A DNA stretch of 26,324 bases from an uncultured Candidatus Saccharibacteria bacterium (GTDB lineage Bacteria > Patescibacteriota > Minisyncoccia > Minisyncoccales > Staskawiczbacteraceae). Below the pieces are notes generated by a model. The model had not been told where the DNA came from and did not search any database. It saw nothing but the letters and a program-made list of their open reading frames with translations. Both the position numbers and the translations under genes were made by a program. Shown one piece after another: positions 7,378 through 24,261 of this stretch. The stretch spans positions 1 through 26,324 of the forward strand of contig CAYHFP010000001.1 in assembly GCA_964355995.1 (NCBI GenBank), written 5' to 3'. Position 1 is the stretch's first letter, and the number at the start of each line of letters is the position of its first letter.

Positions 7378-7453
7378 TGGTGCCCTCGGTAGGAATCGAA
7401 CCTACATTTACCCCTTAGGACGGGGCCGTTCTGATCCATTGAACTACAAAGGC
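7378..7453 (-). tRNA. tRNA-Arg(CCT)
   Basis: Acceptor gcctttg/cgagggc, anticodon arm gcccc-gt CCT aa-ggggt, T loop ttcgatt, encoded CCA. Confidence 0.88.
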
Positions 7454-7460
7454 TTTGAAT

Positions 7461-8087
7461 TTAAAGTGAATCTATTAGATCTGCATAAGATTGGTCTATG
7501 AGTGAATTCACTAACTTTAAAATATTAGATCCCTTTCTAATCATAATCCTACACATACCATGCTTTGTTCTACTTTTCATTCCGCCGTCATTCATTCTTA
7601 CAAAAAATCTAGATTTTGGCAATCCCGTAATTTTAGACCAATAATTTAAACATACCCTTCTGTCCATTCCAGAAAATATTCTTATAGTGGGGGTGAGTCT
7701 ATCTCTTGAAATATTAAAAACTTTTACTAAAATATTTATACATAAATTAATCATTCTGCCATCAGAGTTTACAAAATCACATGATTTTTTACTACCCTCT
7801 GCCCAATAAAGCATAGTAAAAATTAAGGCGTGTTCTCTATGGGGCGATTTTAATATTTCCCTTGCAAAAATTTTGGCATTTTCTAAATTTCTCTCTTTTT
7901 TTTGATGGCTCCCTCCTATTTTTGACCTTAGTAAAGAAATATATTTAGGAGCAATTTTAATATTATGGACATGATGCCAAACAGTGGTCTTTGGTATAGA
8001 TAGCTCCCTTACTAACTCATTAATACTATAGCCTTTTTTCCTTAATTTTTTTAATTTTTTTAATTTTTCTGAAGAATGTATTTTCAT
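7461..8087 (-). CDS. N-terminal HTH plus putative LAGLIDADG-like nuclease-fold protein
   Basis: LRKKGYSINELVRELSIPKTTVWHHV (HTH), LYWAEGSKK and FVNSDGRMI. The fold call is from pattern recall only. Confidence 0.55.
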   Translation of the reverse strand: MKIHSSEKLKKLKKLRKKGYSINELVRELSIPKTTVWHHVHNIKIAPKYISLLRSKIGGSHQKKERNLENAKIFAREILKSPHREHALIFTMLYWAEGSKKSCDFVNSDGRMINLCINILVKVFNISRDRLTPTIRIFSGMDRRVCLNYWSKITGLPKSRFFVRMNDGGMKSRTKHGMCRIMIRKGSNILKLVNSLIDQSYADLIDSL

Positions 8088-8320
8088 ATATTAATTATAC
8101 TACATTATTAAACTAATAGAAACTATAAATTACTAATAAAGGAAAACAAAAGTTCTAATTGATAATTAATTACACTTTATCCTAAAAATTGATTGTTTTC
8201 AATAAAATTGATAAAATAGTATAAAATTCAAATATGCAAATAACGTCACCAATGATGCAAATCCGCACGTTCGTATTCGCAGTATTGGCGTAGCATTTGC
8301 ATATTGGCATTATATTCATT

Positions 8321-9364
8321 ATGAAATATTCTTCACCCATCGTAGAAATTGCAAAAAAAGTGTGTCCGGCCGTTATTACGGTCATTGTTTCTAAAGATTT
8401 ACCAAAAGTAGAAGATTTTTATTCTTTTCCTTATGGTGGCAAAGAATACATTATGCCGATGCCAGAAAAAGATGGCAAAATGCCGATAAAAACCGAAACC
8501 ATGCAAATTGGCGGAGGCTCTGGCTTTATTATTTCCAAAGATGGCTATGTGTTGACCTCAAACCACGTGGTGGCAGACACTACCGCTGATTACACCGTTA
8601 TTTTAGACCCAACTCACAAATATTCTGCCAAAGTATTATCACGAAACCCTATTAATGACACTGCTGTTTTAAAAATTGAAGGCAAAAATTTCCCCTACAT
8701 TGATTTGGCTGATTCCGGTAAAATTCAACTAGGAGAAGAAGTGGTAGCGGTGGGAAATGCTCTTGGAGAATTTAATGACACATTGTCAGCCGGTATTATT
8801 TCCGGACTTTCCCGCTACATTAGTGCTTTTGGAGGATTGGATCACCAAATGCAAAATTTACGAGGCTTAATTCAAACCGATGCCGCCATTAATCCTGGCA
8901 ATTCCGGAGGACCATTGGTAAATATGGACGGCCAAGTCATTGGCATTAACACCGCGATGATTATGGGGGCCCAAAATATTGGATTTGCTATTCCGATAAA
9001 TTACGCTAAAAAAGATTTAGAAGAAGTGAAAAAATTTGGTAAAATTGTGGTGCCGTTTTTGGGCGTAAAATATGTCCTACTTTCCAAAGAAATGGCCAAA
9101 GCTAATAAATTACCCGTAGAAGATGGAGCTTTAGTGGTGCGCGAAGCGCTAGGAGAATCTCCTGTCATTAAAGGCTCATCAGCCGATAGAGCCGGCATTA
9201 AAGAATTTGATATTATTGTAGAATGTAACGGCCAACAAATTACCATGAAAAATCCTCTAGCGGAACTGATGCAAAAATGCCCCATTGGAGAAGAATCAAG
9301 TTTTAAGGTTTTGCGAGATGGCAAAGAATTAATTCTTAAAGTTATTTTATCGGAAAAGGAATAA
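8321..9364 (+). CDS. htrA: HtrA/DegP-family serine protease with one PDZ domain
   Basis: GSGFII, LTSNHVV, IQTDAAINPGNSGGPL, C-terminal PDZ. Confidence 0.95.
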   Translation: MKYSSPIVEIAKKVCPAVITVIVSKDLPKVEDFYSFPYGGKEYIMPMPEKDGKMPIKTETMQIGGGSGFIISKDGYVLTSNHVVADTTADYTVILDPTHKYSAKVLSRNPINDTAVLKIEGKNFPYIDLADSGKIQLGEEVVAVGNALGEFNDTLSAGIISGLSRYISAFGGLDHQMQNLRGLIQTDAAINPGNSGGPLVNMDGQVIGINTAMIMGAQNIGFAIPINYAKKDLEEVKKFGKIVVPFLGVKYVLLSKEMAKANKLPVEDGALVVREALGESPVIKGSSADRAGIKEFDIIVECNGQQITMKNPLAELMQKCPIGEESSFKVLRDGKELILKVILSEKE

Positions 9365-9372
9365 TTCGTAAC

Positions 9373-9404
9373 AAAAAAACCAGCCTGTAAGGGCTGGTTT
9401 TTTT
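9373..9404. terminator. Bidirectional rho-independent terminator
   Basis: aaaaaaaccagcc-tgtaag-ggctggttttttt between convergent genes. Confidence 0.8.
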
Positions 9405-9440
9405 ATTCTATTTTCTACTTTCTAGATTCTATTTTCTCGC

Positions 9441-10184
9441 CTAGAGTTGCACTTTTGAAAACTGATAAGCTCCAACTGCCAAAATAACCAACGTAACGCC
9501 AACTAAAACACTAATACTTAACATTGGAGAAAAAACGCTCACTCCACTAAAAGCTCCGCGCAGGCCATCAACTCCATAAGAAAATGGATTTATTTTTGTC
9601 ACAAATTTCATCGCCATTGGTAAATTTTTAATCGGAAAAATCGCACCTGAAAGATAAAATAAAGGTTGAACCAAAAAGTTAAAAATCAAAGGAAAACTTT
9701 GCATATCATCAAGTCGAGCGGCAATAGTAGCGCCCAAAGCGGAAGACAACATCGCCACCAAGAATAAGAATAAAAATGCGAGCGGCAAACTGGCAAGCTC
9801 CGGCCGGAATCCAGCGACTAGTGTAATTAAAAATACTAAAATTCCTTGAATCATCGCCACCGTTGCTCCACCCAGTGTTTTACCAAGTAAAATTTCAAAC
9901 CGCGAAACTGGCGCCACAAACGTTTCTTTTAAAAATCCGAATTGCTTATCCCAAATAATTTCCAAACCGGTAAAAATAGAGGTAAAAAGCACCGTCATCA
10001 CAATAATCCCCGGAGCTAAAAACTGAATATAGTTTCCCGCACCAGCTTTGGCAAAAACTGGCCCAAAACCAAACCCAATGGCTAGCAAAAAAATAATGGG
10101 TTGTCCCAAGGCACCAACAATGCTGGCCTTTTTTCTAATAAATCTTTTAAGTTGGCGAACCCATAATATATAAATTGCAGTCAT
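9441..10184 (-). CDS. ABC-2 type exporter permease (DrrB-like)
   Basis: YIQFLAPGII, DKQFGFLKETFVAPVSR, INPFSYGVDGLR. Confidence 0.92.
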   Translation of the reverse strand: MTAIYILWVRQLKRFIRKKASIVGALGQPIIFLLAIGFGFGPVFAKAGAGNYIQFLAPGIIVMTVLFTSIFTGLEIIWDKQFGFLKETFVAPVSRFEILLGKTLGGATVAMIQGILVFLITLVAGFRPELASLPLAFLFLFLVAMLSSALGATIAARLDDMQSFPLIFNFLVQPLFYLSGAIFPIKNLPMAMKFVTKINPFSYGVDGLRGAFSGVSVFSPMLSISVLVGVTLVILAVGAYQFSKVQL

Positions 10185-10191
10185 GTGTGTG

Positions 10192-10351
10192 AATTTGAAA
10201 TTTGAAATTTACAATTTGAAATCAAGCCGCGCGCCGTGGCGCGCGGCTGAATATCTAAATTATTAAATTTGAAAACGACGTCGGTTTTTAATTATTTTAA
10301 ATTCACTATTTTCAAATTGATTTCAAATTTCAAATTGTAAATTTCAAATTC
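10192..10351. repeat. Heptamer-built (TTTGAAA/TTTCAAA) inverted-repeat element containing a GC palindrome at 10225-10248
   Basis: Left end is the approximate reverse complement of the right end; the right end nearly matches 19274-19319; agccgcgcgcc-gt-ggcgcgcggct inside. Confidence 0.7.
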
Positions 10352-10354
10352 AAG

Positions 10355-11326
10355 TTAACGCATTAACTTGTTACTAATCCTCATCCGATTTACGCCGGCA
10401 TTTACCGCCTCTTCTCTAATTTTACTTCCGGTTAAAGTAATAAAAGCATCTTCCAAATTTTTGGCGCCAGCTTTTTGGATAATTTCTTGCACCGTTCCAA
10501 TAATTAAAATTTTCCCGTGGTCAATGATAGCAATTCTTTGAGCCATTCTTTCCACCTCTTCCATATGATGAGTGGTGAAAAAAATCGTCACATTTTCTGT
10601 TTTGTTTAAGTTATGGATATAATTCCAAATATGATTTCTGGTTTGCGGGTCAAGTCCAATGGTTGGTTCGTCTAAAAATAAAACTTTTGGGTTATGTAAA
10701 AGTCCGCGGGCAATTTCTAAGCGACGCTTCATCCCCCCAGAAAAAGTTTTCACATACGAATCCTTGCGATCCCAAAGCTCCACCAATTCCAGTAAATTTT
10801 TAATTCGCTCTTGGTAGCCCTGATTTACAAAACTCTTTCGAGGGATTTCCTCTAAATTTTGAGGTAGAAATTTGATAGAATTTTTCGGCCTAGCCAACGG
10901 CTCCGCCGAAAAATTATAGCGAATTTGTAACCAAAATTTAGAGAAAAGACCCGAAAAGTATTCTAAGACGGGAGTTTTGTAATTCAGGGCTTGATTGTCT
11001 TTTTTTATTCCATACAAAATAGCGTGAAATTGCATATTTTCATAAGCGGTTAATTCGTTGTCTAGGCTGGGGTCTTGAAACACAATCCCAAAAGATTTAC
11101 GAGTTTGGTGGGGGTTTTCGGTTACATTGTGTCCATTAAGAAAAACTTCACCGGTAGTCGGTTTTAAAAGCGTAGTCAGCATTTTAATAGTGGTAGTTTT
11201 TCCAGCTCCATTAGGGCCCAAAAATGCGAAAACCTCTCCGGTTTTAACACTAAAACTGAGGTCATCAACGGCCGTAAAATTGCCGTATTTTTTAGTTAAA
11301 TTTTTTGTCTCTATTATATTTTCCAT
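10355..11326 (-). CDS. ABC exporter ATP-binding subunit (DrrA-like) with an in-frame insertion of about 58-60 aa
   Basis: Walker A GPNGAGKTT, Q-loop VFQD, signature FSGGMKRRL, Walker B LFLDEPT, H-loop TTHHM. Confidence 0.93.
   Translation of the reverse strand: MENIIETKNLTKKYGNFTAVDDLSFSVKTGEVFAFLGPNGAGKTTTIKMLTTLLKPTTGEVFLNGHNVTENPHQTRKSFGIVFQDPSLDNELTAYENMQFHAILYGIKKDNQALNYKTPVLEYFSGLFSKFWLQIRYNFSAEPLARPKNSIKFLPQNLEEIPRKSFVNQGYQERIKNLLELVELWDRKDSYVKTFSGGMKRRLEIARGLLHNPKVLFLDEPTIGLDPQTRNHIWNYIHNLNKTENVTIFFTTHHMEEVERMAQRIAIIDHGKILIIGTVQEIIQKAGAKNLEDAFITLTGSKIREEAVNAGVNRMRISNKLMR
10816..10991. mobile_element. About 176-bp palindromic MITE-like element inside the ABC ATPase CDS
   Basis: agccctgatttacaaaactc (10816-10835) versus gagttttgtaattcagggct (10972-10991): 19/20 inverted match; the interior is also quasi-palindromic. 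Confidence 0.8.
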
Positions 11327-11367
11327 GAATTATATTATAATAGTTAAATAGTTTAAATTCAATAAAT

Positions 11368-11392
11368 AAAAATCGCCAGATAGGCGATTTTT
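11368..11392 (-). terminator. Terminator after the GIY-YIG ORF
   Basis: aaaaatcgcc-agata-ggcgattttt. Confidence 0.6.
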
Positions 11393-11646
11393 TATGGTGG
11401 AAGTCCATTTTTGAAAAACTCTTTTAATTTCCTTCTTCCTCCGCCACCCTTCCAGTATAATTCTCTTTTTCTCGCCTCTTTCGATGTTTCAAATTTTTCA
11501 GAAAATAGTAATTCTAAGGGTATTCGGTTTCTGGTAGCAATATTTTTCCCAGAGTTGTGTTCTGCTAATCTCCTTTCTAAGTTATATGTATATCCAACAT
11601 ATGTTTTATGATCTTTGAGACTTTTTAGAATATAAATATAAAACAT
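11392..11646 (-). CDS. Small GIY-YIG nuclease family protein
   Basis: YIYILKS..YVGYT..LERRLAEHN..EARKRELYWK. Confidence 0.9.
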   Translation of the reverse strand: MFYIYILKSLKDHKTYVGYTYNLERRLAEHNSGKNIATRNRIPLELLFSEKFETSKEARKRELYWKGGGGRRKLKEFFKNGLPP

Positions 11647-11710
11647 TCAATTGTGAGCGGGTCGCCCAATTTTAATTGGGACGAACCTCGCTCAATTTTT
11701 CCCTGAAAAA

Positions 11711-11757
11711 TTGAGCGGGTATGGGGAGTCCGTCCGCCAGCGGGCAGACTAGAACCC
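11711..11757 (-). pseudogene. Duplicate tRNA-Gly 3' end with a 21-bp hairpin in the T-loop
   Basis: ttgagcgggtatggggagtc[cgtccgccagcgggcagacta]gaaccc versus the uninterrupted sequence at 11920-11945. Confidence 0.8.
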
Positions 11758-11922
11758 ATCGCTTCGCTCTTTAGAAACCCAAGGTTTCTAACGCGTCCAC
11801 TTCGTGGCGCTGTTTTCCTACACGGAGGGGACACCGAGTTTCCCCTCCGACCCACCCCTCGGGTTCGACTCCTTCCAACACCACTCAAAAAAAAGATAGA
11901 CTTGCAGTCTACTTTTTATTTG

Positions 11923-11993
11923 AGCGGGTATGGGGAGTCGAACCCCACTCATTAGCTTGGAAAGCTAAGGTAATACCGATATACGATACCCGC
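11923..11993 (-). tRNA. tRNA-Gly(TCC)
   Basis: Acceptor gcgggta/tacccgc, anticodon arm ttagc-tt TCC aa-gctaa; CCA not encoded. Confidence 0.93.
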
Positions 11994-12015
11994 GTGACGA
12001 ATTTCAAATTAAACC

Positions 12016-12089
12016 TGGTCGGGCTGCTGGGATTCGAACCCAGACTAAATCGTCCCAAACGATTCGTGCTACCGTTACACTACAGCCCG
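12016..12089 (-). tRNA. tRNA-Pro(TGG)
   Basis: Acceptor cgggctg/cagcccg, anticodon arm aatcg-tt TGG ga-cgatt, encoded CCA. Confidence 0.93.
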
Positions 12090-12093
12090 GTAA

Positions 12094-12489
12094 TTACTTT
12101 TTATACTTGCGGAATAATTTATCATGTTGCCACACATGCCCATAATGTATTATTCTATGACAATTAGCACACACAACCGCACATTTTTCTATTTCTTTTT
12201 TTACGCGATCAAAAGCAAGGTGATTATAAGCTGCGTACCCTATGGTAAATTCTTTGTCTCGTAGATGATGGAAATCCAACACCCTACAATCTTTTATTCC
12301 ACACTTAAAACATCCACGCTTTTCTTTGTAATCTTCTAAAAACTTCCGATACTTATTGCGTAATAACTTTTTATCATTATTAAAACAATGACGACACTTT
12401 AGGCGTCGATATGTTTTGCCACTAATAGTTCCCGCCACACCAAAATCCAATTCTGGATAATATTTACTGCAATATTTACAAAGCTTCAT
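12094..12489 (-). CDS. HNH endonuclease-like protein with CxxC zinc motifs
   Basis: CKYC, CRHC, CFKC..VLDFHH..CAVVCANCHRIIH; stop codon 4 nt before tRNA-Pro. The start may be 12525. Confidence 0.8.
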   Translation of the reverse strand: MKLCKYCSKYYPELDFGVAGTISGKTYRRLKCRHCFNNDKKLLRNKYRKFLEDYKEKRGCFKCGIKDCRVLDFHHLRDKEFTIGYAAYNHLAFDRVKKEIEKCAVVCANCHRIIHYGHVWQHDKLFRKYKK

Positions 12490-12565
12490 TGCATTAATTA
12501 TAATACTTTTGGGAGCGTTTATCAAGGTTCAAATTACTTTATTTCCTATAATAAAATGATAGGTC

Positions 12566-12616
12566 ATTATAGTTTGAAAATCAAATATTGTCAAAGACCA
12601 AAATTTATGTTAGGAT
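12566..12616. promoter_or_regulatory. Back-to-back sigma70 promoters with overlapping -35 boxes
   Basis: Minus strand: perfect TTGACA (12594-12589)-17-TATAAT (12571-12566). Plus strand: TTGTCA (12588-12593)-17-TAGGAT (12611-12616), upstream of tRNA-Arg. Confidence 0.75.
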
Positions 12617-12629
12617 TCTAAATAGTTTT

Positions 12630-12701
12630 GCCCTCGTAGCTTAATGGATAAAGCAAGGCTCTTCTAAGGCCTTGATAGGGGTTCGATTCCCTTCGAGGGC
12701 A
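12630..12701 (+). tRNA. tRNA-Arg(TCT)
   Basis: Acceptor gccctcg/cgagggc, anticodon loop ct TCT aa; CCA not encoded. Confidence 0.88.
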
Positions 12702-12778
12702 CAGGAAAGGGAGAGCCAAATGCTTAATCCACAGGTTGATTGATTGACGTTAAAGCCACATTTGTTACAATTAAGTAT

Positions 12779-13276
12779 ATGGTTCAAGTCAGTTGCAAAA
12801 TATGCTCCAAAGAATTTTATGCCAAACCAAGTTGGATTAATATCGGCAATGGAAAATATTGTTCAATGGAATGTAGTCAGAAATCACAGATAAAAGGCAC
12901 CCATGTTAAATGTGAAATATGTAAAAAAGAAATATGGAGAACACCAAGCAAAATAAGGCGTTCTAAAAGCAGAAAATATTTTTGCAATAAATCATGTCAA
13001 ACTCTTTGGCGTAATAGCATAGTATATGTCGGCAAAAATCATCCGAATTGGAAGAATGGGGGAACTATGTATCGAAAGATATTACAAAGAAGTACAAAAG
13101 AAAAAATCTGTTGTTTATGCGAAATAAAAGACGAACGCATATTAGCAGTCCACCATATAGATAAAAACAGAAAAAATTCTAAATTGGAAAACCTTATATG
13201 GCTTTGTCATAACTGTCATTTTTTAGTTCATCACGATACAAAAACAGCAAAAAAACTTATGGAGGCTATAGTGTAG
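12779..13276 (+). CDS. HNH endonuclease with tandem N-terminal zinc-finger repeats
   Basis: CKIC..YCSMEC, CEIC..FCNKSC, then CCLC..LAVHHIDKNRKN...NLIWLCHNCHFLVH. Confidence 0.85.
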   Translation: MVQVSCKICSKEFYAKPSWINIGNGKYCSMECSQKSQIKGTHVKCEICKKEIWRTPSKIRRSKSRKYFCNKSCQTLWRNSIVYVGKNHPNWKNGGTMYRKILQRSTKEKICCLCEIKDERILAVHHIDKNRKNSKLENLIWLCHNCHFLVHHDTKTAKKLMEAIV

Positions 13277-13336
13277 TGGCCAGCACAACACCCTGTGGCG
13301 GTGTCAGCGGGAGTTCGAATCTCCTTAGCCTCCCCA
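13261..13336 (+). tRNA. tRNA-His(GTG)
   Basis: G-1:C73 pair, acceptor gaggcta/tagcctc, anticodon arm acacc-ct GTG gc-ggtgt, encoded CCA. Confidence 0.93.
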
Positions 13337-13424: not shown

Positions 13425-13943
13425 ATGAATACCCTAAAAGATATCCAAGAATTTATCAATCTGGCGCAAAAAAATAGAAAGTATCCGGCCAACACAGCTC
13501 ACGGAAAGCGCGCGGCTTTAAAGTTATTTGAGACTGTTTTACACCCAGATGAGCTGGAATCCTTAGAACTAATAGAAGATAGAATGAAAGAGATTTACCT
13601 TAGCTTAATCAGTCGTCACCAACATACCTTTAGTATTAAGTCCCTCAATACCTATAAGGGAAGATTTTTAAAAACCATCCAAGATTATAAAAGATATGGC
13701 AAAGATCCAGATGCTTTTTCACGCTGGGAAGTCAAAAACCGCAAGCAGAAAGACAAAGACACAAAAGAAGATACTAAAAAAGATACATCTCTATCTAATA
13801 TATCTTCATCCATTCACAGCCCTGTGCATAAGATACAGATAACCCTAGAATCTGGCAAGACTTTCTCCATGGAAATTCCGCAAAATATTTCTAAAGGAGA
13901 TTCCACCATCATTCAAAAGATTATTTCATCTTTTACAGAATAG
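13425..13943 (+). CDS. Hypothetical protein (helical N-domain, Lys/Asp linker, small C-domain)
   Basis: 172-aa ATG-started ORF convergent with the RT; no confident family. Confidence 0.7.
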   Translation: MNTLKDIQEFINLAQKNRKYPANTAHGKRAALKLFETVLHPDELESLELIEDRMKEIYLSLISRHQHTFSIKSLNTYKGRFLKTIQDYKRYGKDPDAFSRWEVKNRKQKDKDTKEDTKKDTSLSNISSSIHSPVHKIQITLESGKTFSMEIPQNISKGDSTIIQKIISSFTE

Positions 13944-13991: not shown

Positions 13992-15037
13992 TTAAATTAA
14001 CTTTAAAATTTCTTCTCGCAAATCGTATGAATTGCAATGTGTTAAAACTCCTAAATAAGATTGCAGAGTTTTATTGAATTTTTCCTCCGACATTTCCTTG
14101 TTTTTTAGAGCGTTAACTTTTACTACAATATTCTTTAACATCCTATCTCTTGTTTTTACTCTTACTATTTTATGATACGGAAAAACCACATATCCTAAAA
14201 AATCAACCCCTTGATGATACTTTCTGACAACAATTTTATTTGGATGAAGTTCCAGTTTTAGATTATTTTTTAAAAAAGCATCTATTTTCGATATATAACT
14301 TTCAAACTTTTCCATGCCATCTTCTACAATCACAAAATCATCGCAATACCTTATATAGTATTTTATCCTGAGTTGATGCTTAATAAATTGGTCTAATTCG
14401 CATAGATAAACATTAGAAAATAATTGACTGACAACATTCCCCAAAGGCAAACCCTTTTCAAAACTTTTAATAATACTTTCTAGAAGCCAAATAACTTCTG
14501 CATCTTTAATTTTCTTTTTTACCAAATCAAGCAAAATATCCTGGTCAATGGAGTCAAAAAACTTTCTGACATCACATTTTAAAACATATGCCGGCTTTGT
14601 ATTATTTCTACTTTGCTTTTGCAAAAACACTTTTAATTTCTCAACAGCCCTATGCGCCCCTTTTTCATTTCGACAAGAATAAGAATCAAAAATAAAATGC
14701 CGGTCAAAAGTGGGGTATAAAATTCTAAAAATAGCGTGGTGCAATACCCTATCGCGAACACAGGCCTTGTGAATATGTCTTATTTTGGGGTCTTTAACAT
14801 AAAAAGAATAATAAGGCGAATGTTGATAGGTTTTATTTTTTAACTCTTGATAAAGCTTGAATATATTTGGTTCTAAGTTATACTCAAATTGCATAACATC
14901 AGGCTTGCTTCTTTTACCTTTTTTAAACTCGTCCCAAGCCAAAAACAAATTCTCAAGAGAAACAATATCATTAAATAAATTATCACTATGACCTTTAACC
15001 CCCCCCCCCAGACAGTTTCAATTTGCCTATCTTGCAT
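13992..15037 (-). CDS. DGR reverse transcriptase; likely ATG (15037) is out of frame across G11
   Basis: RDRVLHHAI, GLPLGNVVSQLF (DGR-type GxxxSQ), YIRYCDDF, DFLGY. The RT frame extends upstream to VKGHSDNLFNDIVSLENLF but contains no ATG. Confidence 0.92.
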
Positions 15038-15364
15038 AAAGTTTATGAATTATATAAATTATTTTATGAATACTCAAAATGGTTTCCTAAAAAAGATAAA
15101 CACATCATTGGTAAACGATGTGAGGACTTAATCTTAGACATTATAGAATTAATCTTGCTGGCAATCAATGATAAAACCGACCGTAAATTACTTATCCTGG
15201 AAAAAATCAGTGCCAAGCTCAACACCCTCAGAATGTTTATTCGTATAACCAAAGAATTGAAAATTATCAGTCTAACTAAATACGCTATTTTACAATCAAG
15301 GATTGATGAGATTGGCAAATTATTGGGTGCGTGGATAAAAAATGCACAAAAGAAAAGCCCCTAA
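14988..15364 (+). CDS. avd: DGR accessory variability determinant (Avd, four-helix bundle); likely ATG (14988) is out of frame across C11
   Basis: PILHKVYELYK..FPKKDKHIIG..LEKISAKLNTLRMFIRI..IDEIGKLLGAWIK, adjacent to RT and TR. Confidence 0.85.
14999..15009. repeat. C11/G11 homopolymer inside the RT/avd overlap
   Basis: tttaa-ccccccccccc-agacag. Confidence 0.9.
15049..15077 (-). promoter_or_regulatory. Candidate RT promoter inside avd
   Basis: Minus strand TTGAGT (15077-15072)-17-TATAAT (15054-15049), 11 nt before ATG 15037. Confidence 0.45.
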
Positions 15365-15375
15365 GGGCTTTTCTT
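15350..15375. terminator. Hairpin between the avd 3' end and the TR 3' end, possibly bidirectional
   Basis: aagaaaagccc-ctaa-gggcttttctt. Confidence 0.65.
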
Positions 15376-15384
15376 CATTATATA

Positions 15385-15508
15385 GGAACTTCGGAGCGAG
15401 CGCAGATATTGTCATTGGAGTTATCGGGGTTGTAGTTGTTGCCATAGACCTTGCTATTGCCAGAGTTGAAGTTGAGGTAAGGGACATTACCATTGGAATC
15501 GCGCGAAC
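15385..15508 (-). ncRNA. DGR template repeat (TR)
   Basis: 124-bp ungapped match to the VR, with 34 adenines and 11 AAY codons in the target frame. Confidence 0.95.
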
Positions 15509-15704
15509 GCATATTGTGTAGTTACATCTATGTCACCGGTAATACAAAATTAGTATTCCCTGAGTTTTTCTCTGTCCGTCGCAGAGCAGTTTTCCGAGTC
15601 AAAGTTACTCAAGATAATTACACAAGCAGTTCCCAAATTGTATTGCGGCAAACCGATATTCCGTAGAACCGGTTATATTAGCCAAGATTATTGTATAAAA
15701 AAAT

Positions 15705-15745
15705 ACCGCTTTTTGCAACATCTTAGTGATGTTGCAAAAAGCGGT
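15705..15745 (-). terminator. 18-bp-stem hairpin after the DGR target gene
   Basis: accgctttttgcaacatc-ttagt-gatgttgcaaaaagcggt, followed by a T-run on the minus strand. Confidence 0.75.
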
Positions 15746-15778
15746 TTGATTGACGGAATTCAAAAATTCAAGAACTCG

Positions 15779-15798
15779 CGTCAACTTGCGAGTTGACG
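15779..15798. promoter_or_regulatory. Candidate DGR homing hairpin directly 3' of the VR
   Basis: cgtcaact-tgcg-agttgacg, 8-bp stem with 4-nt loop. Confidence 0.6.
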
Positions 15799-16572
15799 GG
15801 GAACTGCGGAGCGAGCGCAGACAGGGCCACCGGAGTGATCGGGGCTGCAGTCGTAGCCATAGACCTTGCCATCGCCAGAGTCGAAGAAGAGGCAAGGGAC
15901 AAGACCATAGGAAACGCGCGAACCTCCCGACTTCGTCCACCTCGCGACATTCAAATGACCTCCTGTCGTTATGTGATACGCCAACTCCAACAACCAGTCC
16001 TCGAGGTGCGTCGTATCAACCAACCCTTGGCTCCGGCGCCAGTTGGCGTCTTGATTGGCATTGACGGGAGGCTCCACAGTTGCCTCAACATCAACCACAT
16101 ACGACCCGTCCCGGTAAGGGTTGCGGTCGTTGCGTTTGATGTTTTTGACTTGGTCATCGGCGAACGCGGTATCCATATCTGCGTACCACGATTTCGCCGC
16201 AAATTTCGGCTTCGCCTTGGCACCAATTTGGTGAAGTGCGTCCCGGACTTTGTTGAGCGTGACGAGACGAATTTCTTCATCTCCATCTCTGCGAAAAAAA
16301 TCCAAAACTGGCACTGTCCATCGGCCCATCCTGTCGCCCATCTCCAAGCCGGCGATTTTGGCATCGTATTCTTCGGGTTCAACGCCAAGGATTTTGTAGG
16401 TCACCCGCCAATCCAACGCGGTGGGCAGCGGTACTTCTTCAATCACCACTGGCGGATTAACTTCTACCAACATCCACTCGCCACGCAGAAGCGCTTCGGC
16501 ACGATCTTCTCCGCCGATTTTGTTGATGACGGATTCGAGCCAATTACCTGTCCTGTGTCCATACTTTGACAT
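15781..16572 (-). CDS. DGR target protein with a variable C-terminus (probably CLec-like fold)
   Basis: VR encodes SRVSYGLVPCLFFDSGDGKVYGYDCSPDHSGGPVCARSAV; probable start MSKYGHRTG. Confidence 0.9.
   Translation of the reverse strand: MSKYGHRTGNWLESVINKIGGEDRAEALLRGEWMLVEVNPPVVIEEVPLPTALDWRVTYKILGVEPEEYDAKIAGLEMGDRMGRWTVPVLDFFRRDGDEEIRLVTLNKVRDALHQIGAKAKPKFAAKSWYADMDTAFADDQVKNIKRNDRNPYRDGSYVVDVEATVEPPVNANQDANWRRSQGLVDTTHLEDWLLELAYHITTGGHLNVARWTKSGGSRVSYGLVPCLFFDSGDGKVYGYDCSPDHSGGPVCARSAVPRQLAS
15800..15923 (-). repeat. DGR variable repeat (VR) at the 3' end of the target gene
   Basis: 22 mismatches to the TR, all at TR adenines. Confidence 0.95.
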
Positions 16573-16755
16573 CACAACCTTCTTTCTCTGGCTGATAACC
16601 AGAATTATTCCCACACCTGATAGGCGGGGGCCACGAAATGTGGCGATGCCAAGCCGCCAAAATAGCAGCCATAGCCAAAAATCCTCTTTTTTAAAAAGAC
16701 TTTTGGCTATGGCTAGCTAAATTTCAATTCTAAAAGAGCTTTAAACTATGTAATA

Positions 16756-18418: not shown

Positions 18419-18520
18419 TAAATTCGAATATCGAATATCGAAATTCGAAACATATTTTAAAAATTAAAATTTATAATTTTGGATTTGTTTCGGACTTCGG
18501 ATTTCGTGCTTCGGATTTTA
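18419..18520. repeat. Heptamer-periodic imperfect inverted-repeat element
   Basis: aaattcgaatatcgaatatcgaaattcgaaaca ... tgtttcggacttcggatttcgtgcttcggattt. Confidence 0.65.
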
Positions 18521-18591
18521 TATTTTAATTATACGTAAAATATACCAACATGGTGAGTTTGGCATATTTTAAAAACTTTTAGGCTAGAGAG

Positions 18592-19179: not shown

Positions 19180-19319
19180 GTCGAATTTGAAATTTGAAAT
19201 TCAAAATTTAAAATAAGTAGGTGTCGAAATTTTGATAAAGCAAAATTTCGACGTTTTTAATTATTTCAAATTCAGTATTTTCAAATTGATTTCAAATTTC
19301 AAATTGTAAATTTCAAATT
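19180..19319. repeat. Second copy of the TTTGAAA/TTTCAAA heptamer element
   Basis: tattttcaaattgatttcaaatttcaaattgtaaatttcaaatt shared with the 10192-10351 copy; it overlaps the tig stop codon. Confidence 0.75.
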
Positions 19320-20626
19320 TTCGAAAAACTCTCGAGTTTTTCGAACACTTTTTCGTTATAGATTGCACCTTTAGTATACTCTCTTAGCTCGTTAACGTCA
19401 ATTTTTTCTAATTGCTCTTTTGAATATCTTTGCATCACTTTTGTCATTTCTTCGTTTAATTCTTTTTCATCAACTTCAATATTTTCTGCTTTTCCAATTT
19501 CTCGCAGAACCAAAAAGTTTCTGATTCTCTTTTCAGCTTCCAAACTAAAAGATTTTTTCACCTCGTTTTCATCTTTTTTTACCGAAGCTAAATATTCATC
19601 AAAATCTATTTTGGCATTTTGGGCAATTTGATTTTTAAAATCTTCAAAAAGTCGCGCACTTTCGTAGTCCACCATTTTTTCTGGCAAATCAAAGGTAATT
19701 TTCTGTGAAACATTATGCAAAACTTCTCCTCGTTTTCGTTGTCTTTCTCCTTCCTGTTTTTCCATAGTTATTCCACCTCTGATATTTTCTTTCAAACTCA
19801 CCAAACTATCAAAAGCAGAGACGGGCGATCCGGCAGAGCCGACCCCGCTCGCGTCTTGACCCAAACTTTTTGCTAATTCATCATCAATTTCCGGTAATTC
19901 CATTTTTTGCACCAAAACCATCCTGACCTTAAAATCAGATTCTTTGCCCGCCAACTCTTTATTAGGAGTATTGTCGGGGAATTTTGCTTTAAATTCTTTT
20001 TCATCTCCCGCTTTCATCCCCAAAATATTATCTTCAAAATCTTTCAAAAATCCGCCTTCATTTAAAATAAAACTATCTTGAATTATTTTCCCGCCGTTAA
20101 TTTGGCTGTTTTGATATTCTATTTCCACAAAATCTTTTGGCTCAGCTCCACGCTCAACAGGCGAAAGTTTGGCTTTGCTTTTTTGCAAATAAATTACGGC
20201 GTCCTCAACTTCCTTTTCATCAACTAAAATGTCTTGCCCTTTTACTTTTTTGGCTATTTCTTGATAGTCCGGCAAAACAATTTCTGGCAAAACCGAAATT
20301 TTTACCACAAATTCAAAAGGCGAACCCTTGGCGATTTTTTTAATTTGGACTTCTGGATCTCCAATAGGTTCTAGCTTACTTTCAGTAACAAAATCTCTGT
20401 AAGATTTTTTAACCGCTAAATCTCCCGCTTCCATGAGCAAATTCTCATTACCAATCTTTTCTTCCACCATTTTTAAAGGCACCGCACCCTTGCGAAATCC
20501 ATCCATTTTGACCTGGTCTTTTAATTTCAAAAGCGCGCCCTCAAGATATTTTTGAAATTCGTCGGCAGTTAACTCAAACTCAACTTCTATTTGCGATTTT
20601 GGTAATTTTTTAATGGTATTTTTCAT
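19313..20626 (-). CDS. tig: Trigger factor, with a 15-aa in-frame insertion
   Basis: GFRKGAVP ribosome-binding motif, FKBP domain, next to clpP. Confidence 0.95.
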   Translation of the reverse strand: MKNTIKKLPKSQIEVEFELTADEFQKYLEGALLKLKDQVKMDGFRKGAVPLKMVEEKIGNENLLMEAGDLAVKKSYRDFVTESKLEPIGDPEVQIKKIAKGSPFEFVVKISVLPEIVLPDYQEIAKKVKGQDILVDEKEVEDAVIYLQKSKAKLSPVERGAEPKDFVEIEYQNSQINGGKIIQDSFILNEGGFLKDFEDNILGMKAGDEKEFKAKFPDNTPNKELAGKESDFKVRMVLVQKMELPEIDDELAKSLGQDASGVGSAGSPVSAFDSLVSLKENIRGGITMEKQEGERQRKRGEVLHNVSQKITFDLPEKMVDYESARLFEDFKNQIAQNAKIDFDEYLASVKKDENEVKKSFSLEAEKRIRNFLVLREIGKAENIEVDEKELNEEMTKVMQRYSKEQLEKIDVNELREYTKGAIYNEKVFEKLESFSKI

Positions 20627-22990: not shown

Positions 22991-23347
22991 TCACCCCCAT
23001 TCACCAGATGTAAATTCTATTTTACCGCCTAGAAAATATATTCCTGTTTTCCCATCGTCAGTACTAAATTTAACACCATACTTCTCCGCAATAATGAAGG
23101 GGCCCTCCATAAAATCTCCGTCCTCTTCTCTTGCTGTCCCAAATTTTTTCTGTTTTTCCCATAAATCATCGACATCAATAAGTGTTCTCTCGTTAAACAT
23201 TTCACTTAATTTATACTCCATCATTAAGGCAAAGGCATGAGATGTACAACTATTCTTACCTTTTTGATCATGAACAGGTATATTATATGGATTAAGAACT
23301 TTATATGATTCTGGAATTTTTCTATCCCATTGAAGTTTTATTTTCAT
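22991..23347 (-). CDS. Papain-like (C1) peptidase N-terminal fragment
   Basis: VHDQKGKNSCTSHAFA motif; ATGA overlap with the upstream gene; no catalytic His/Asn region. Confidence 0.6.
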   Translation of the reverse strand: MKIKLQWDRKIPESYKVLNPYNIPVHDQKGKNSCTSHAFALMMEYKLSEMFNERTLIDVDDLWEKQKKFGTAREEDGDFMEGPFIIAEKYGVKFSTDDGKTGIYFLGGKIEFTSGEWG

Positions 23348-24261
23348 AGGATTTGGTTTGCCCCTTCTAAATACCATTTATCTTTATCTTTATTATATAT
23401 GTATGTAAATTTCTCTTCTTTCTTGGGCAAATTCATTGTTTCTCGTAAAACTATTGAGATTTTATCTAATGCACCATTAATTTCCTTATCAGATAATTTA
23501 GCCTCAAGAATAAATAATATAGTTGGGTTATTATTGTTTAATCCCTTATGAGAAGCTACTATTACAAAGTTATCATTTTCCTTAGAAGCCTTATTTCTTA
23601 CTAGTTTATATAACTTTAAAATAGTATTCTTAATCTTTTGCCAAATCGCATCGTCTAGATCAGTTAATATATGATTTAGAAACCATGGGCCAACTAAGAA
23701 AGTAAAAAAGTACCAAGCTCCGCTAATAAACCATTCTGGGAGAACTGCCCCTGTGCCCATAACATAATCTGCCCTACCTTCTTTTTCATATCTCTTGTCA
23801 ATATTTTCCTTTTCTTTTTTAATCTTTTCATTATCGATTATTTCTATCCTATAATCTTTCAATTCTTCCAAGATGCTTTCTACAGATATCTCTATGCTAT
23901 GACAATTGAAATCAATTTTTATTTCTTTATCCTTATCTTCGTGTAAAATTTTCTTTCCAGATTTCTCAGCAATAAAAATTTCTTTATTATAATCCTCTGT
24001 AATTTTTCTTCGGTAATCAAAATCAACAAATTTATCCTCCTTTTTAATAAAAATATTTCTTAAAGCTTCTAGAAAAATCCTAAGTTTACTGGATTTTTGG
24101 TGATCAGAAAAATTTTTAAGATGATCTAATTGAGCAGAAAGAGCATTGATTTGATCCTTGAGGTCTTCTCTGGATTTTTGGTGATCAGGAAAATTTTTAA
24201 GATGATCTAATTGAGCGGAAAAAGAATTAATTTGATCTTTGAGATCTTCTATTGTAGCCAT
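23344..24261 (-). CDS. Hypothetical protein with an N-terminal 27-aa tandem duplication and one hydrophobic segment
   Basis: 305-aa ORF; 81-bp repeat at 24089-24169 and 24170-24250. Confidence 0.7.
   Translation of the reverse strand: MATIEDLKDQINSFSAQLDHLKNFPDHQKSREDLKDQINALSAQLDHLKNFSDHQKSSKLRIFLEALRNIFIKKEDKFVDFDYRRKITEDYNKEIFIAEKSGKKILHEDKDKEIKIDFNCHSIEISVESILEELKDYRIEIIDNEKIKKEKENIDKRYEKEGRADYVMGTGAVLPEWFISGAWYFFTFLVGPWFLNHILTDLDDAIWQKIKNTILKLYKLVRNKASKENDNFVIVASHKGLNNNNPTILFILEAKLSDKEINGALDKISIVLRETMNLPKKEEKFTYIYNKDKDKWYLEGANQIL

Follow-up and report, generated by a model that had tools for sequence, protein, structure and literature searches.

Nuclease-type genes at the 5' ends of tRNA genes in a Patescibacteria chromosome: candidate intron-free homing cassettes

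Transfer RNA (tRNA) genes serve integrative elements as att sites, with a duplicated part restoring the tRNA. They are also targeted by tRNA-intron endonucleases such as I-Ssp6803I, a PD-(D/E)XK enzyme of family PF11645. Here we describe short nuclease-type genes that end at the 5' ends of tRNA genes in a stretch of 26,324 nucleotides (nt) from an uncultured Candidatus Saccharibacteria bacterium; this stretch, called the window, corresponds to contig C1, and the genome measures 679 kb. Three of these genes, before tRNA-Arg(CCT), tRNA-Pro(TGG), and tRNA-His(GTG), appear to be independent intron-free homing cassettes, each dedicated to one tRNA gene and predicted to cut DNA, and we give this reading a probability of roughly 0.8. 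Unlike integrative elements, they have no integrase among the neighboring genes scanned, measure only about 0.5 to 0.8 kb, and duplicate the 5' rather than the 3' part of the tRNA gene. A tRNA gene is the likely target, as it is for I-Ssp6803I, and a further gene before tRNA-Ser(GCT) on contig C9 matches PF11645; however, the window holds no ribozyme, and host function would be restored by duplication and not by splicing.

Phage T4 SegB is a free-standing enzyme that recognizes a 27-bp site with a tRNA motif and homes, and processing of the tRNA precursor has been proposed to limit its expression (PMC2330249). The phage T5 genes F-TflI/II/IV are free-standing endonuclease genes among tRNA genes, as cited in PMC2330249. 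The window genes are likewise free-standing, endonuclease-like, and located at tRNA genes that are their predicted targets. However, SegB is a phage enzyme that cuts near many tRNAs via their shared T-loop and replaces the whole cluster, whereas the window genes are chromosomal, have one branch per isotype, and appear to enter the tRNA gene itself and provide it with a 5' part. They resemble in this the mORF elements of fungal mitochondria (Allomyces macrogynus atp6; Glomus atp6, atp9, cox2, and nad3), in which an intron-free endonuclease element inserts in a gene and brings a replacement for part of it, so that the native part persists as a duplicate (PMC3630166). The mORF elements replace the 3' ends of mitochondrial protein genes, whereas the window cassettes would replace the 5' ends of bacterial chromosomal tRNA genes and bring a new promoter.

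The protein encoded before tRNA-Arg(CCT) has a modeled fold similar to those of I-CreI, I-DmoI, and I-ShaI, shares with them an acidic residue ending the first helix, and has a modeled homodimer; I-ShaI is a single-domain LAGLIDADG enzyme of ribosomal RNA introns in the candidate phyla radiation, the same bacterial group (PMC11270868). It differs from these single-domain enzymes in its LYWAEG motif, an added N-terminal helix-turn-helix (HTH), the lack of a Pfam LAGLIDADG match, its location outside introns, and its predicted tRNA target. [quoted passage not shown] A putative target copy also lies over the Pro cassette's own promoter, where the operator is read from sequence; the I-Tev enzymes are encoded in phage introns, whereas the window genes are intron-free. 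A literature search that covered subscription journals thinly returned no description of this tRNA arrangement in Patescibacteria. What is new in the window is the presence of three unrelated branches side by side, together with tests of alleles and operators that point out likely target sites.

Anatomy of the Arg, Pro, and His cassettes

ARAGORN called 6 tRNA genes in the window and 39 in the genome, and all allele counts below were made on such calls; a plain pattern search also picked up non-tRNA repeats. (An intron-containing tRNA-Ile(TAT) call at C13:9439-10680 lacks tRNA-like ends and looks spurious.) A nuclease-type gene ends between -18 and +7 nt from the 5' end of 8 of the 39 tRNAs. 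When adjoining was defined as a gene end -45 to +25 nt from a co-oriented tRNA, 8/14 short nuclease-type genes adjoined a tRNA 5' end genome-wide, compared with 2/670 other open reading frames (ORFs) (Fisher p = 1e-13). Five cassettes lie outside the window, on contigs C51, C9, C18, and C28. Three are paralogues of the ORF before tRNA-Arg(CCT) and end 3 to 4 nt before tRNA-Gln(TTG), tRNA-Lys(CTT), and tRNA-Phe(GAA), so that all four copies of this LYWAEG family found in the genome abut tRNAs. The PF11645 gene (C9:225-681, locus L004; E = 1.8e-17) stops 5 nt before tRNA-Ser(GCT), and a GIY-YIG gene (C51:3931-4300, locus L003) overlaps tRNA-Cys and has an exact 23-nt tRNA-Cys stump upstream.

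The unit begins with an ancestral tRNA promoter and a frequently eroded 5' tRNA stump, followed by its own sigma-70 promoter, which bears a target-like motif, and then by the nuclease-fold ORF and a complete tRNA. An initial annotation of this DNA had noted the three gene placements and had reported neither an intron nor an adjacent integrase. ARAGORN and the ORF lists bore out the placements (stop codons 7 nt before tRNA-Arg(CCT) and 4 nt before tRNA-Pro(TGG), and an overlap with tRNA-His that measures 15 nt), Rfam found no group I intron in the window, and the window tRNAs are uninterrupted.

In the Arg cassette, which lies on the minus strand, the tRNA-Arg(CCT) gene (7378 to 7453) has one D-loop base more (GGATCAGAAC; the added C is 7433) than empty alleles, which read GGAYAGAAC; this carrier allele is predicted to resist cutting. 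The ORF (7461 to 8087) encodes 208 amino acids (aa), with an HTH (residues 1 to 44) and a single LAGLIDADG-like domain (79 to 208) that bears the LYWAEG motif and the invariant E97; its guanine-plus-cytosine content is 29.5%, compared with 36.6% for the genome. A TATAAT -10 box (8094 to 8099), the putative leaderless cassette promoter, lies 6 nt before the ATG, a spacing found in 23/34 members of the Arg(CCT) branch versus 79/684 genome ORFs. Farther upstream are a conserved TTTCTA motif (8117 to 8122), which resembles an inverted tRNA D-arm half-site and is a candidate operator, and TAGAAC (8152 to 8157), the last remnant of the 5' tRNA stump and the left end of the cassette. TTTCTA occurs in 18/34 branch members and in 2/63 members of other branches; for TAGAAC the counts are 18/34 and 0/63. 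The outermost element (TTGAAA-17-TAAAGT, 8174 to 8202), an ancestral tRNA-Arg promoter, closely matches the one that immediately precedes the empty tRNA of genome G008.

The tRNA-Pro(TGG) gene (12016 to 12089, minus strand) carries G31-C39 (12060/12052) where most empty alleles have C31-G39 and is also predicted to be cut-resistant; tRNA-Gly(TCC) (11922 to 11993, minus strand) occupies a co-transcribed position downstream. The ORF before it (12094 to 12525, minus strand) likely starts at ATG 12489, giving a 131-aa, Cys-rich product (12094 to 12489) with an HNH motif (DFHH...CANCH) that belongs to a tRNA-Pro(TGG)-specific branch. The predicted cassette promoter (TTGATA-17-TATAAT, 12497 to 12525, minus strand) lies 7 nt before that ATG. 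Over its -35 box is a 26-nt inverted copy of tRNA-Pro (12508 to 12533, plus strand), which runs from the anticodon loop to the T-loop (about positions 32 to 59), has 14 straight identities plus a one-base gap, and is of the empty-allele type. It is a candidate autorepression operator, and its core CCCAAA recurs in 12/12 Pro-HNH relatives (shuffle maximum, 2). The perfect TTGACA-17-TATAAT that the initial annotation had placed ahead of this ORF is present (12566 to 12594, minus strand), but it is the ancestral tRNA-Pro promoter, which stands directly before the tRNA in empty alleles. Ancestral promoters thus survive upstream of both the Arg and the Pro inserts.

The His cassette lies on the plus strand after tRNA-Arg(TCT) (12630 to 12702), which is 15 to 26 nt from tRNA-His in several empty alleles. 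Two CCACA motifs (12729 to 12760), the inverse of the His anticodon loop TGTGG, form a candidate operator or left end, and CCACA occurs in 7/11 promoters of the His-HNH branch. The predicted promoter (TTGACG-16-TACAAT, 12744 to 12771) lies 7 nt before ATG 12779, the likely actual start of the ORF 12740-13276. The resulting 165-aa zinc-finger and HNH protein (12779 to 13276; VHH...N...CHNCH) belongs to a tRNA-His-specific branch, and its TAG stop is supplied by tRNA-His(GTG) (13262 to 13336, called by ARAGORN). HH...C-x-NCH is conserved in the listed relatives of both HNH ORFs. The position of a -10 box 6 to 7 nt before the ATG of each cassette ORF suggests leaderless transcripts. A conserved 172-aa orphan gene without a family match (13425 to 13943) follows tRNA-His and also stands beside this tRNA cluster in genus relatives.

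The 7461-8087 protein belongs to the tRNA-Arg(CCT) branch of a large unannotated family. Its structure model consists of the HTH, a long helix, and a C-terminal domain that, modeled alone, reached a predicted local distance difference test score (pLDDT) of 93. The best VIA structural matches of this domain were WhiA, I-DmoI, and an intein endonuclease (Z, 7.5 to 7.6; root mean square deviation, 3.2 to 3.3; 83 to 87 residues aligned), and LAGLIDADG domains filled 9 of the top 11 VIA rows and spanned the whole domain. With Z under 8, these matches give moderate support for a LAGLIDADG-like fold. The glutamate of LYWAEG, the acidic residue ending the motif helix, is kept in 104/112 family members, and E97-G98 is invariant in A1 and A2. 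In its homodimer model (score, 0.61, compared with 0.00 for the best control; 97% contact agreement; pLDDT of at least 81), the two copies pair by the LYWAE helix, and the interface includes residues 85 to 97. The dimer mark was also reached by 20/30 solved pairs and 1/23 singles, and the model may have passed through its likeness to solved LAGLIDADG dimers.

Specificity, optional occurrence, and the tRNA gene as probable target

Each protein branch keeps to one tRNA. We sampled 24 genomes of the same genus, 70 of the order, and 250 of the class, as well as species-representative genomes. In the last set, 37/37 close relatives of the 7461-8087 protein precede tRNA-Arg(CCT), with varied gene neighbors. 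Close relatives of the 12094-12489 gene precede tRNA-Pro(TGG), and those of the 12779-13276 gene precede tRNA-His, at times as tandem pairs. A tree of 112 LYWAEG-family proteins, of which 98 end at most 60 nt from a co-oriented tRNA, required 22 changes of isotype label, compared with a shuffled value of 72.9; one supported clade each was formed by Arg(CCT), Gln(TTG), Tyr, and Phe. The stop codon lies within the tRNA in 37 of the 98. Six relatives lie inside tRNA group I introns; the genes that house intron-borne relatives are those for tRNA-His and tRNA-Asn and, for one member of the Lys branch, tRNA-Lys(CTT). In some LYWAEG branches, the gene instead directly follows the 3' end of a tRNA (Glu-TTC, Met, or Gly-TCC); these include members from Chloroflexota and Actinomycetota. 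Of 16 members on viral contigs, 15 are within about 1.5 kb of tRNA genes and 2 directly abut one; none belongs to the close Arg-CCT branch.

The cassettes are optional. The initial annotation had suggested selfish homing-type cassettes, and its proposed comparison of orthologous tRNA loci with and without the ORF agrees with that reading: empty alleles predominate, and the genes do not occur with equal frequency at sites away from tRNAs. The Arg(CCT)-branch ORF is found in 14/250 class genomes and in 0/24 same-genus genomes and is therefore not fixed and syntenic across the clade. At 14 same-genus loci, no ORF separates tRNA-Arg(CCT) from the same divergent protease gene, which is 37 to 360 nt away. 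Strong matches to the His-HNH gene occur in 12/250 class genomes, and the Pro-HNH gene occurs in two genus relatives plus 1/70 order genomes. Broken copies were seen in 3/37 Arg members (frameshifted examples), with further examples at Gln, Ile, and His.

Relatives keep a 5' stump of the tRNA gene upstream of the ORF, comprising positions 1 to 25 of tRNA-Arg (to 36 in one), 1 to 37 of tRNA-His (to the anticodon loop), and 4 to 38 of tRNA-Lys; therefore, the unit appears to insert inside the tRNA gene and supply a new 5' part. Five Arg loci (L035, L039, L040, L044, and L069) have full stumps, and four Arg stumps lack the extra D-loop base that is present in their own downstream full tRNA. A strict automatic stump search was significant in 5/95 loci and motif alignment showed more, as would be expected if stumps erode quickly.

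The tRNA alleles of carriers also differ from those of empty loci. The extra D-loop base is found in 20/25 carriers of the close Arg sub-branch versus 8/98 empty alleles; of the remaining five carriers, four have C39 and one has an altered base 21. As a result, the canonical Arg site occurs in 0/25 carriers and 72/98 empty alleles (p = 3e-12, a value that ignores kinship). In five host families, a carrier has the extra base and nearly all sampled kin lack it. Genome G024 has the extra base with neither the ORF nor a remnant of it, which may reflect loss of the ORF after fixation. For tRNA-Pro, G31-C39 occurs in 9/12 carriers versus 1/41 empty alleles in the order; no fixed carrier change was found in tRNA-His. 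The Arg promoters best match positions 14 to 35 of tRNA-Arg(CCT) (z = 8.5, best of 23 isotypes), partly via the stump remnant. The D-arm/anticodon region of this tRNA gene forms a near-palindrome, TAGAAC-N6-GTCCTA, which is a candidate homodimer site, and many Patescibacteria tRNA-Arg(CCT) genes have an unusual G at position 32.

Because of the 5' stumps, the altered carrier alleles, and the operator copies, we infer that the tRNA gene itself is the DNA target. This refines the proposal in the initial annotation, in which tRNA leaders served as safe, highly transcribed sites.

Homing and its alternatives

Under homing, carrier DNA would meet an empty allele via natural competence or phage, and the enzyme would cut or nick the empty tRNA gene. 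The Arg-CCT target would span about positions 16 to 39, with insertion after 25; the His target would be the anticodon loop, with insertion after 37; and the Pro binding site would cover about positions 32 to 59. Break repair would copy in the promoter, the ORF, and a fresh tRNA 5' part, keeping a working tRNA without splicing and leaving the old 5' part as a stump. The new gene would be resistant through its split site and neutral changes. The enzyme may repress its own promoter via the target-like operator, and processing of the ORF-tRNA transcript by RNase P, which would cost the ORF its stop codon in 37/98 members, may further damp expression; the earlier suggestion that RNase P releases the ORF mRNA is plausible. 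Copies would decay and be lost, with the resistant tRNA alleles remaining.

Several observations weigh against this account. For the enzymes, neither the full nor the domain model of the 7461-8087 protein had a LAGLIDADG match in Foldseek (for the domain, none at E 0.001), a check that the initial annotation had suggested; only VIA gave such matches, at moderate strength. The Pfam LAGLIDADG profile matched 0/81 family members, so the family is either too divergent or a new subfamily, and a PDB sequence search with this protein found no LAGLIDADG match. WhiA, which does not cut, ties as the top structural match. Pfam scores for the His ORF are below cut-off (HNH_3, E = 0.0026; HNH, E = 0.057), and the Pro ORF has no Pfam HNH match; both HNH calls were made by motif. 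For the target, the Pro branch has no visible stump, and the Arg stump in the window is down to 6 nt. Deeper Arg sub-branches lie beside canonical tRNAs in 9/21 cases, G31-C39 also occurs in 3/16 same-family empty alleles, the allele counts are not phylogenetically independent, and all comparisons of plus and minus alleles are between species, none conspecific. The promoter scan by clade and isotype supported a target-like motif only for Arg-CCT; it found none in the Lys, Gln, Phe, Tyr, and Gly branches, in which the cognate tRNA did not rank first (for Tyr, there were too few tRNAs to score).

The tie with WhiA, the HTH plus LAGLIDADG-like build, the target-like motifs in promoters, and the position of the ORF between tRNA promoter and tRNA would all suit domesticated, noncutting WhiA-like regulators that bind the tRNA gene or its promoter and tune expression of that tRNA, the other possibility raised by the initial annotation. 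We consider this improbable. A WhiA-type regulator is a conserved, vertically kept, single-copy gene, whereas the Arg-branch ORF is present in about 6% of class genomes, is absent from the genus relatives, and has frameshifted copies. Intron-borne relatives and stumps also disfavor regulation, carrier tRNAs depart from the sequence that looks bound, the acidic motif residue is kept, and at least three folds do the same thing.

No better is the chance that the genes are passive relics, that is, orphan endonuclease genes of decayed tRNA introns or phages moved by ordinary recombination at tRNA homology anchors. Relatives in tRNA group I introns and viral tRNA clusters and the broken copies are as expected of relics. 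However, most copies are intact over 25 to 60% identity with invariant motifs, the promoter-operator is conserved, the linked changes in the alleles require an active enzyme to select them, and genes of other kinds show no such clustering at tRNA 5' ends.

Least probable, by a little, is an addiction or defense module, in which the nuclease attacks a specific tRNA (as RNA) or phage tRNA genes and the altered adjacent tRNA is the antidote: strict isotype pairing, altered carrier tRNAs, and family members in tRNA clusters of viral contigs fit it too, but the inverted copy at the promoter, being DNA, implies binding to DNA, the stumps and intron-borne relatives point to insertion at a DNA target, and LAGLIDADG enzymes cut DNA.

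Other features of the window and implications of the cassettes

The initial annotation had grouped a fourth gene with these three, a GIY-YIG ORF after a tRNA-Gly duplicate. Both features are real: an 84-aa GIY-YIG gene (11392 to 11646, minus strand; PF01541, E = 3.5e-17) follows, on the 3' side, a duplicated 20-nt segment from the tRNA-Gly 3' end, and a hairpin interrupts the T-loop of this duplicate (11711 to 11757, minus strand). The arrangement is different and less specific, and we rejected the gene as the same type of element: it lies 3' of the duplicate, and only 1/7 short GIY-YIG genes in the genome, most of them beside hairpin repeats, abuts a tRNA 5' end. Copies in the window (11640 to 11900) and on C50, C13, C16, and C41 adjoin hairpin repeats as well as short ends that are duplicated, and three of the genes are located immediately 3' of a tRNA gene. 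The short GIY-YIG genes and hairpins are possibly a separate mobile hairpin-nuclease system.

The window also contains a diversity-generating retroelement (13992 to 15923), with a reverse transcriptase (13992 to 14948, minus strand; RVT_1), bAvd (15023 to 15364, plus strand), and a pair of 124-nt repeats with 82% identity (15385 to 15508 and 15800 to 15923) that are likely the template and variable repeats; the target ORF (15781 to 16614, minus strand) has no Pfam match. An AT-rich repeat family (TTTGAAATTTGAAAT-like) occurs at 10198 to 10350 and 19252 to 19320, with many copies on other contigs. A repeat of about 100 nt follows clpP (18420 to 18530) and has 82 to 88% copies on C37, C42, C31, C16, and C24. 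Two tandem 81-nt copies with 91% identity (24089 to 24250) lie within ORF 23344-24261. Staskawiczbacteria and other Patescibacteria are the sources of the named homologues.

On balance, we lean toward the view that Patescibacteria chromosomes host a guild of minimal (0.5- to 0.8-kb), splice-free homing elements. At least three folds (LAGLIDADG-like, HNH, PD-(D/E)XK, and occasionally GIY-YIG) would have converged on one tRNA isotype each, replacement of its 5' part, autorepression by a target mimic, swaps between intron-borne and free forms, and lasting tRNA changes in D-loop length and anticodon-stem pairs. Phages and mitochondria, whose genomes often come together, are known to have free-standing homing, and a large chromosomal set would imply frequent DNA exchange among Patescibacteria. 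Such cassettes offer many small candidate endonucleases whose targets may be read from neighbors, stumps, and operators. They also suggest a possible route for the origin or movement of tRNA introns without their own enzyme and would provide a selfish-DNA cause for variation in tRNA sequence.

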